This document shows, one piece after another, positions 787 through 1,438 of a DNA stretch of 4,497 nucleotides; within the stretch, counting starts at the first letter, position 1; the number at the start of each line of letters is the position of its first letter. The stretch lies in the IMG/VR virus record IMGVR_UViG_2648501230_000017; one strand, written 5' to 3'. A program made the position numbers and the translations under genes. The notes below the pieces were generated by a model. It did not search any database. It saw only the letters and a list, made by a program, of their open reading frames with translations, and had not been told where the DNA came from. This DNA comes from a virus (Duplodnaviria; Heunggongvirae; Uroviricota; Caudoviricetes).

Positions 787-1329
787 ATGATATACCCGGA
801 AATTACAGGCAAAAGCGGCGAGCATTTACGTCTAAAAACGCTGGAAGCCGTCTGGATCCAGGGGAAATTACGGATGTGGGGGCGTTGGTCGTATATAGGT
901 GGTGGCAAACCAGGAAATATGTTCAATCAGTTGCTGGCATCCAAAAAACTGACAAAAACCGCAATCAATGAAGCCCTGCGTAGAATCAGGGAGTCAGGGA
1001 TTGATAAACCAGAGCTGGAAGCATTCTTGCGAGAGATGATCGCTGGCAGACAGAAGAGCTGGTTGTCTCACTGTACTGATGCAGAGGCGTTACGCATTGA
1101 TGGGGTGATAAGTAAAGCGCTTGCACGTTATCCTGGATTGATTGATATCCTGCGGCAAAGGTACGAAGGGCGGGGGATGAGTAAACGCAAAATGGCTGAA
1201 TTGTTGAATGAGGTGCACCCGGAATGGTGTTTTAGTACATGCGAAAAGCGAATTGCTAATTGGTTGGCTGTTGCTGAATATGCGCTATACATCCCTATGC
1301 GAGAATCGTTTGCTCAAAAAATGTCTTGA
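787..1329 (+). CDS. putative late-gene antiterminator Q-like protein (alternative GTG start at 775 overlaps the rusA stop)
   Basis: About 180 aa ORF directly after rusA and directly before a PR'-like promoter and a strong intrinsic terminator, the syntenic position of Q in lambdoid phages. Contains an L-x-x-W-G-x-W motif (RMWGRWS) that I recall from some Q families. Not lambda-Q-like in sequence; assignment rests mainly on synteny. Confidence 0.6.
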   Translation: MIYPEITGKSGEHLRLKTLEAVWIQGKLRMWGRWSYIGGGKPGNMFNQLLASKKLTKTAINEALRRIRESGIDKPELEAFLREMIAGRQKSWLSHCTDAEALRIDGVISKALARYPGLIDILRQRYEGRGMSKRKMAELLNEVHPEWCFSTCEKRIANWLAVAEYALYIPMRESFAQKMS

Positions 1330-1354
1330 TTTTTTACGCATAAACTGTTTCAAT
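1326..1354 (+). promoter_or_regulatory. candidate late promoter PR'-like (-35 TTGATT, 17-bp spacer, extended -10 TGtTTCAAT)
   Basis: -35 TTGATT at 1326-1331 overlapping the Q stop codon, 17-nt spacer, TG at 1346-1347 and -10 TTCAAT at 1349-1354. Predicted start near 1361 would give a transcript of about 75-80 nt ending at the terminator at 1413-1438. Confidence 0.3.
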
Positions 1355-1412
1355 CCAGCTACGCTTCGCAAAGCTATACCGCGAGGCGAATAGCAGACAT
1401 GGACACCTGAAA

Positions 1413-1438
1413 GAACCCGCTTTATGCGGGTTTTTTTA
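1413..1438 (+). terminator. rho-independent terminator (tR'-like) downstream of Q
   Basis: Hairpin CCCGC (1416-1420) / loop TTTAT / GCGGG (1426-1430), followed by a run of seven T (1431-1437). Confidence 0.8.

Follow-up and report, generated by a model that had tools for sequence, protein, structure and literature searches.

What is the role of the short segment that follows the Q-like gene in a 4,497-nucleotide (nt) stretch of tailed-phage DNA (IMG/VR record IMGVR_UViG_2648501230_000017; the whole stretch is called the window here)? A sequence-only reading had placed a late promoter at the stop codon of a Q antiterminator gene and a strong terminator close behind it, with the short leader between them as the site where Q would be loaded. 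We consider it probable, at roughly 0.78, that the segment is the PR'/qut/tR' (late promoter, Q-utilisation site and terminator) late-control cassette of a lambdoid prophage, working with a Q-like antiterminator of the DUF1133 family, a remote relative of the Q protein of phage 21 (Q21). The sequence elements with their spacing and degree of conservation, the terminator, and the homology of the protein to Q21 are established here. A script check found every element named in the earlier reading where it had been placed, and the core of that reading is borne out by the comparative evidence and the homology to Q21. The elements are as follows.

787-1329, + strand: DUF1133 open reading frame (ORF), Q-like antiterminator, 180 amino acids (aa) from the ATG at 787, with an in-frame GTG at 775.
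1326-1438, + strand: the promoter-to-terminator feature (PR'-tR').
1326-1331, + strand: -35 hexamer TTGATT, read from the sequence, which includes the TGA stop codon (1327-1329) of the 787-1329 ORF.
1332-1347, + strand: conserved spacer block of 16 base pairs (bp), TTTTACGC followed by ATAAACTG, a candidate Q-binding element.
1346-1354, + strand: extended -10 element TGnTTCAAT, with TG at 1346-1347 and TTCAAT at 1349-1354, read from the sequence.
1360-1365, + strand: -10-like TACGCT, a candidate sigma-dependent pause element, with the predicted start A1361 inside it.
1361-1437, + strand: predicted terminated late-leader RNA of 77 nt, deduced from the promoter geometry and the terminator.
1362-1388, + strand: 5' stem-loop of the leader as seen in folds, with an 8-bp stem (CGCUUCGC at 1362-1369 with GCGAGGCG at 1381-1388) and an 11-nt loop.
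1368-1376, + strand: GCrAAGCTG block, +8 to +16 (window sequence GCAAAGCTA), with a putative role in pausing.
1414-1437, + strand: intrinsic terminator tR', with AACCCGC (1414-1420), the loop UUUAU, GCGGGUU (1426-1432) and U7 (1431-1437).

The -35 and -10 hexamers are separated by 17 bp, and the predicted start lies seven bases past the -10. The GCrAAGCTG block may be either a second -10-like element or a pause-site sequence. The 77-nt RNA folded at -29.3 kcal/mol (z = -4.5), and 0 of 200 shuffled sequences were as good; the stretch 1355-1445 gave z = -7.6. In the folded RNA, about 20-25 nt of single-stranded linker join the 5' stem to the terminator with its U7. A leader peptide or attenuator was rejected, the sole ORF within the RNA being ATG-GAC-ACC-TGA (1399-1410). 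An antisense ORF at 1285-1455 (56 aa) was also set aside, as it gave no family match.

Judged by the window sequence alone, the terminator is secure and the promoter amounts to no more than a guess. Five promoter-like sites were found in the whole window against 6.7 expected from shuffles, so that a promoter call made from this sequence alone is no better than chance. The single-sequence consensus scan of the window did not list the terminator at 1414-1437, we think because A-U pairs carry the stem extension into the U run.

The DNA downstream of DUF1133 genes was gathered from phage records, complete E. coli genomes, GTDB genomes and IMG/VR contigs, which gave 112 usable loci with 59 distinct downstream sequences; a scan of genome contigs with a single protein query yielded only 4 loci. 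A pattern search found a conserved start region in 51 of the 59 distinct sequences, and one further locus (L079) carries it with a one-base insertion, bringing the number to about 52. By identity of the Q-like protein, the loci fall into three groups: Escherichia/Shigella/Citrobacter (73-100%), Providencia-like (38-43%) and Edwardsiella-like (33-35%). The layout of -35, 16-bp block, -10, start region, variable linker and intrinsic terminator is common to all three. Across the groups, the consensus of the 16-bp block is TTTTACsS ATAAAsTk and that of the start region is TAyGCTknGCrAAGCTG. The -35 of the relatives is TTGATT, TTGACT or TTGACA, the latter two being found in the Providencia-like and Edwardsiella-like groups. 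CTG(C/T)TTCAAT is preserved in nearly all E. coli-type loci, and the distant relatives carry TATAGT or TAGTAT at this place; the -10 of the E. coli version is weak and is rescued only by its TGn extension. In a Providencia phage (L008), the scan listed a promoter with 10 of 12 consensus bases at 3056-3083 and a terminator at 3137-3154; in L009, it listed a 10-of-12 promoter at 3034-3061, whose -35 again overlaps the stop codon, and a terminator at 3126-3145. These are the homologous places, in relatives whose Q-like protein is only 34-43% identical, and it is this conservation in distant relatives that lifts the promoter call above chance. The candidate promoter that had been proposed to overlap the Q stop codon recurs in about 52 distinct loci.

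The terminator close behind the promoter, also part of the sequence-only reading, is kept in position as well. It ends 63-83 nt past the predicted start in 50 of 51 distinct loci, with 77 as the commonest value. At least six types of terminator stem (CCCGC, ACCGC, GCCCGC, GCCACC, CCTCGC and variants) occur at this one distance; therefore, the position of the terminator is conserved and its sequence is free. Identity between the E. coli group and the distant groups is 69-81% from +1 to +16, 33-42% in the discriminator (-12 to -1), and 23-38% from +17 to +42; at third codon positions of the Q-like gene it is 32-36%. The 16-bp block, which stands in fixed register to the start region, matches that of L008 at 12 of 16 bases by our own count on the alignment. 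All three groups have TA(C/T/A)GCT at -1 to +5, and with it the A (position 2) and the T (position 6) required by region 2 of sigma. In Rac-SA53, TAAGATG is found at the offset of the pause element although the rest of the leader is unrelated.

Two kinds of rearrangement bear on how the block is retained. In L032/L033 and their relatives among the IMG/VR contigs, the DUF1133 protein is 91% identical across residues 1-176 and has a different C-terminal end, and the promoter block TTGTAT-17-TTCAAT stands about 95 nt beyond the stop codon. In Salmonella enterica CP191473 (L005), a Gifsy-1-type IsrK promoter, leader and terminator has been inserted between the DUF1133 gene and its cognate block (3053-3950), and the insert also carries an ORF of 187 aa where Gifsy-1 has its antirepressor gene anrP. 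This locus, with an IsrK-type leader behind a DUF1133 gene, could have been taken as a break of the link between gene and leader; the case was resolved by the cognate block, which is still present at 3889-3950, about 830 nt further downstream, where its terminator has decayed. These rearrangements indicate that the block is not retained merely because it overlaps the end of the gene.

Similarity of the window to many phages with other upstream modules, namely Shiga toxin (Stx) phages of types Stx2a, Stx2c and Stx2d and phiP27, starts inside the terminator, at about 1413-1426. Since this similarity begins at the terminator, the gene, the promoter and the leader travel as one module, and the terminator marks a mosaic junction. 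The Stx2a phage WGPS2 (Stx2a_WGPS2, L115) has the equivalent hairpin, AAACCCGC CGCGA GCGGGTTT, at 1489-1515; it is preceded by unrelated DNA whose genes lie on the opposite strand, and no Q gene adjoins it. In prophage Sp10 of the enterohaemorrhagic E. coli (EHEC) strain Sakai (L118), the same cassette lies at 3558-3666, which corresponds to NC_002695.2:1940557-1940665, and the leader at about 1940590-1940665 (+ strand). ECs_1958, the 'phage antiterminator' of Sp10, belongs to the DUF1133 family (74% identity), and TAAGCTT is found at the pause-element position. Holin and endolysin genes follow the cassette on the same strand in the relatives; the window ends before the lysis genes. As a separate observation, PP818812.1 ('Actinobacillus phage vB_Apl-pPE4') carries an E. 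coli-like DUF1133 gene (78% at the amino acid level) and leader (77% at the nucleotide level), which is odd for its stated host.

The protein encoded at 787-1329 matched Pfam PF06576 (DUF1133) at 342 bits and PF06530, the Q21/933W family, at 28.4 bits (cut-off 26) over residues 69-140; the lambda-type Q family PF03589 was unmatched in this Pfam search. PHROG 753, 'anti-termination protein Q-like', was matched at 261 bits, no NCBIfam model matched the protein, and RefSeq names the gene 'DUF1133 family protein' only. A single-sequence search of the PDB was too weak, reaching Q21 only at E = 7.9, and a profile search was needed for this reason. The profile built from 11 family members matched the PDB entries of Q21 (6p18, 6jnx) with E = 4e-7. 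The hhalign comparison with phage 21 Q gave a probability of 96% and E = 5e-9, aligning residues 14-178 with residues 6-152 at 25% identity across 134 aligned columns. Kept in this alignment are the N-terminal W..G.L..WG.W motif, the S-K of the first helix of the helix-turn-helix (HTH), and the T-C-R/E-R recognition helix; relative to Q21, about 30 additional residues follow the N-terminal WGxW motif in the DUF1133 protein. The AlphaFold2 model was too poor for use (mean per-residue confidence score pLDDT 50.2 and predicted template-modelling score pTM 0.38, from a shallow alignment of 14 sequences of at least 81% identity).

The genome position points in the same direction as these matches. 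In related phages, the gene order is nin/RusA genes, DUF1133 gene and lysis genes, and the DUF1133 gene occupies the Q slot before tRNAs, morons and holin-lysin genes in Escherichia, Klebsiella, Providencia and Edwardsiella phages as well as in Sakai Sp10. A survey of Stx phages had already recorded 'DUF1133 (Q antiterminator HHPred)' (PMC8136144). The DUF1133 protein is a remote homologue of phage 21 Q, and this homology, together with genome position, is the ground for identifying it as a Q. The gene that the sequence-only reading had called Q is thus Q-like in these two respects, and it encodes a DUF1133 protein rather than a classical annotated Q.

The phage 21 record OL657228, whose annotation is experimentally based, gives the -35 TTGACA, 2 bp, the Q-binding element (QBE) ATTGAGCA followed by AATGAGCA (16 bp), 12 bp, and the sigma-dependent pause element (SDPE) TAAGCTG. 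The 12-bp stretch contains the -10 and ends at the start point; then come the terminator, tRNAs and lysis genes. By comparison, the window has TTGATT, 0 bp, the 16-bp block, 12 bp with TTCAAT, and TACGCTT, and the Providencia-type loci have a 1-bp gap behind the -35 and TATGCTG at the pause-element position. The TAAGCT of Sp10 is identical to that of the phage 21 SDPE. Besides the homologous protein, the two systems have in common the order of Q stop codon, -35, 16-bp block, 12-bp gap, -10-like element, terminator, tRNAs and lysis genes, and in both the early transcribed RNA lies in a hairpin. The spacing of the elements agrees nearly to the base, and the 16-bp block stands where phage 21 has its QBE. 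They differ in that the phage 21 unit is about 50 nt with the terminator stem from +3, whereas that of the window is 77 nt with a separate 5' hairpin. This parallel is the main reason for reading the 16-bp block as a protein-binding site.

The TAnGCT element differs little from the pause element of phage 21. At +10 to +16 there is a second copy, rAAGCTG, which may be a second pause element; alternatively, U15/G16 may form a Y-G pause site about 10 nt past the first element. In lambda, the Y-G pause site reportedly lies about 10 nt beyond the pause element, as is said to have been described by Bird et al. in 2016. Lambda PR' follows the same logic as the proposed cassette, with a promoter just past Q, an early pause element, and a short terminated RNA made without Q. 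The lambda pause element is AACGAT (here TACGCT), and the lambda 6S RNA is about 194 nt (here 77 nt). Lambda Q belongs to a different Q family, PF03589, which was unmatched here, and there is no sequence similarity between the two systems. The lambda QBE lies between the -35 and the -10 (PMC6606751). Q21 is loaded through DNA (10.1101/651190; PMC6606751).

In the mechanism that we propose, host sigma-70 RNA polymerase would initiate near A1361 from TTGATT-17-TGnTTCAAT. In the absence of Q, it would stop at the hairpin and U7 of 1414-1437 and release the leader of about 77 nt with its 5' stem-loop. Once the early operon has made the DUF1133 protein, the protein would bind the 16-bp block at 1332-1347 between the -35 and the -10. 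The polymerase would be held by sigma at TACGCT (1360-1365), with escape from the pause near GCTG at +13 to +16, and the DUF1133 protein would load onto it, after which tR' and the terminators at 1744-1761 and 4112-4133 would be ignored. The readthrough would express the small ORF, the methylase, the tRNAs, the cargo, and the lysis genes beyond the window. The two downstream terminators, which the sequence-only reading had also predicted, were both listed by the scan. Readthrough is expected to be required for the genes at 1560-3256, from the 65-aa ORF to tRNA-Arg-TCT; the consensus scan listed no + strand promoter-like site from 1440 to 3300, and no other one before 3322. Promoter activity, the start point, pausing, protein binding, antitermination, and any RNA abundance or trans-acting role are what we infer here from the DNA.

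Several observations weigh against this assignment. The promoter at 1326-1354 was missing from the single-sequence consensus scan of the window, because its -10 (TTCAAT) lacks the key A at position 2; the support for the promoter is therefore comparative. The 16-bp block of the window is no direct repeat, with 3 of 8 positions matching between its halves, whereas the phage 21 element is a TGAGCA repeat. The candidate pause element, at -1 to +5, lies 2-3 nt nearer the start than that of phage 21, at +2 to +8. The DUF1133 protein lacks the 12-residue loop of the HT[loop]H motif that Q21 inserts into the minor groove, and hence its binding mode may differ from that of Q21. Klebsiella relatives (60% identical) do not have the conserved start region, although the terminator close behind the gene is kept. 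A literature search found no experimental work on the DUF1133 family, including no demonstrated antitermination, and nothing on transcripts, start sites or Hfq was found for the leader site. The table of Hfq sites obtained by cross-linking and analysis of cDNA (CRAC) in Tree 2014 has no entry at the Sp10 leader; this table is uninformative on the leader, because sites close to genes were excluded there (PMC7547250). As an observation in its own right, the Klebsiella phages L007 and L011 have DUF1133 homologues with a C-terminus 12 residues longer, and their short leader contains TGAGCA, the subsite motif of the phage 21 QBE.

Does the leader RNA do anything beyond being terminated? It might also be a trans-acting, probably Hfq-dependent regulatory small RNA (sRNA) of the lysogen, in the manner of StxS or IsrK, which would add to the late-control cassette and not replace it; we regard this as unlikely. 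Both precedents regulate genes in trans (PMC7547250; PMC4825925), and the protected 5' stem, the single-stranded linker and the U7 terminator would suit such a function. The leader is also widespread: of 5426 complete E. coli genomes, at least 630 have a match to 80% or more of its length, with up to 4 copies in each. Among the matches listed, no RNA annotation lay under the leader, only a DUF1133 gene, a hypothetical protein or nothing. However, the linker, which is the only plausible seed, is the least conserved part of the RNA, with at least five variants among the E. coli-type loci and the 23-38% identity to the distant groups given above, and the conserved first 16 nt would fit a DNA-level loading site. 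Furthermore, no Rfam family reached its cut-off, no Hfq peak is on record, and the leader is not one of the known prophage sRNAs that were compared with it.

The first of these, StxS (EcOnc15), is the terminated PR' RNA of Stx1 and Stx2a phages; it is 258 nt long and processed to 74 nt, goes with a 144-aa Q, and shows that by-products of PR'-tR' transcription can become Hfq-dependent regulators (PMC7547250). It is likewise made between PR' and tR' directly downstream of Q, and to this extent the analogy with the Stx phage sRNA drawn in the sequence-only reading stands. The analogy does not extend to the sequence or to the type of Q: StxS was rejected as the identity of the leader because the DUF1133 Q has 180 aa against 144 aa and because no similarity to Stx phage records was found, the comparison being made through these records and not with the StxS sequence. 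When 1300-1460 was compared with the phage collection by blastn, 6 records were found, none of them a Stx phage.

An Rfam search of the whole window, and of 1280-1480 at permissive thresholds, found no family at its gathering score for the leader, and the hits were mostly driven by the terminator. Among them was IsrK (RF01394), with a full-length match at 1363-1436 of 21.6 bits against a gathering score of 50. IsrK of Gifsy-1 is 77 nt, has its own promoter and terminator directly downstream of the antiterminator Q gene, and allows partial readthrough into downstream genes (PMC4825925). The leader was rejected as IsrK, since the score is under the gathering score and the AntQ of Gifsy-1 is of the phage 82 type. 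In the Salmonella locus described above, the IsrK-type module and the DUF1133-type block coexist as separate elements. The match reflects a similar two-hairpin architecture, and IsrK is an analogue of the leader, not a homologue. HnrS (EcOnc10-12) was also rejected: it lies past the Rz gene on the opposite strand, and EcOnc11 is found in Sp10 at 1946819-1946867 (- strand).

It could further be asked whether the E. coli version has a working promoter at all. The hairpin would otherwise be the terminator of the early-right operon, and the conserved block would have another role or be inherited by linkage. This agrees with the weak -10, with the unlisted site and with the chance-level number of promoter hits in the window, and since the block abuts the gene directly, linkage contributes to its retention. 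We nevertheless consider it very unlikely. Promoters of 10 of 12 consensus bases stand at the same spot in distant relatives, a TGn extension stands before the -10 in almost every E. coli-type locus, and the layout mirrors that of phage 21. Moreover, conserved blocks amid near-random sequence point to selection rather than linkage, and the block persists where it stands about 95 nt or about 830 nt away from the gene.

A 5' stem from +2 is possible in every group, with a register and 3' partners that differ, and no common consensus fold of the 5' region was found across all groups (alifold -1.8). The Providencia-type set contains one covarying pair, which is C-G in 3, U-A in 2 and U-G in 1 of the sequences; this covariation is weak, the observed score having been reached by 27 of 500 shuffles. 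Because of the differing registers and the weak covariation, we see the 5' stem as a feature that probably stabilises the leader, not as a conserved functional core. That the conserved 5' part acts as RNA, being put-like or recognised by the Q-like protein, and modifies the polymerase in cis is scarcely credible: the stem and the covarying pair would fit it, but the stem register varies by group, no common fold exists, the covariation is weak, the conservation of primary sequence from +1 to +16 and that of the untranscribed block from -29 to -14 in fixed register are left unexplained, and the homologue Q21 is loaded through DNA (10.1101/651190; PMC6606751).

If the late-control cassette works as proposed, it sets the timing with which the late genes of these prophages are switched on. 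In related phages, the late genes found at this position encode, among other things, Shiga toxin, LT-II or pertussis-like toxins, as well as tRNAs and methylases. The regulatory principle is the textbook late-gene switch of lambda-like phages, and what is new is the version that the DUF1133 subfamily of Q would use. The defined promoter, the candidate binding block and the candidate pause element offer concrete mutations for a relative of Q21 without the minor-groove loop. The leader is one more prophage RNA for which the transcript-end and Hfq-binding data available for EHEC can be consulted, and Sp10 provides a suitable site, as dRNA-seq, Term-seq and Hfq data have been published for Sakai. 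A further-reaching view, to which we give a low probability, is that DUF1133 is a widespread offshoot of Q21 with a loading site of its own, consisting of a non-repeat 16-bp block, TAnGCT near the start and a second AAGCT, and that the 77-nt leader is a stable, host-acting sRNA in the lysogen. The leader, for which RefSeq has no annotation, lies in over a tenth of complete E. coli genomes and also occurs in several EHEC prophages.

The window represents the nin/Q/late-leader part of a lambdoid prophage; among complete E. coli genomes, it matched NZ_CP090611.1 (from pig) best, with 99.9% identity. The features around the cassette are as follows.

71-412, + strand: DUF968/HNH-like ORF.
413-778, + strand: RusA.
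1560-1757, + strand: 65-aa ORF, with the scan-listed terminator at 1744-1761.
1908-2957, + strand: N6/N4 DNA methylase.
3007-3082, + strand: tRNA-CAT.
3090-3163, + strand: degenerate tRNA, 22 bits, under the Rfam cut-off and without an ARAGORN call.
3180-3256, + strand: tRNA-Arg-TCT.
3367-3720, + strand: AT-rich cargo ORF, 117 aa, matching PHROG 2873 at 229 bits, with no match in Pfam.
3953-4142, + strand: sRNA of the STnc100 family, Rfam 132 bits.

A decayed argN-type gene is the probable identity of the degenerate tRNA at 3090-3163, which lies between two intact tRNAs; where the window has the 3007-3256 cluster, related Stx phages carry three tRNAs. The cargo ORF at 3367-3720 occupies the place of stx2AB or TerB-like cargo in related phages. 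Directly past the STnc100 terminator, a perfect 12-bp inverted repeat was observed at 4165-4198, TCCTTATGGACT and AGTCCATAAGGA with a 10-nt loop between them. Sakai prophages have a convergent anti-sRNA of the AgvB/AsxR type at the equivalent place; the conserved 3' end of that type, GCCCGAACCCACTCGGGC, was not seen on reading 4100-4260, for which no pattern search was made.

The STnc100 match at 3953-4142 is a known 'moron-site' sRNA, encoded between PR' and the lysis genes. The hairpin at 4112-4133, which the sequence-only reading had named among the late terminators, is the terminator of this sRNA. The published northern probe for EcOnc05, an Hfq-bound sRNA of EHEC Sakai, has a perfect 35/35 antisense match to 4011-4045, and the northern probe for EcOnc06 matches at 34 of 35 positions, from 4024.

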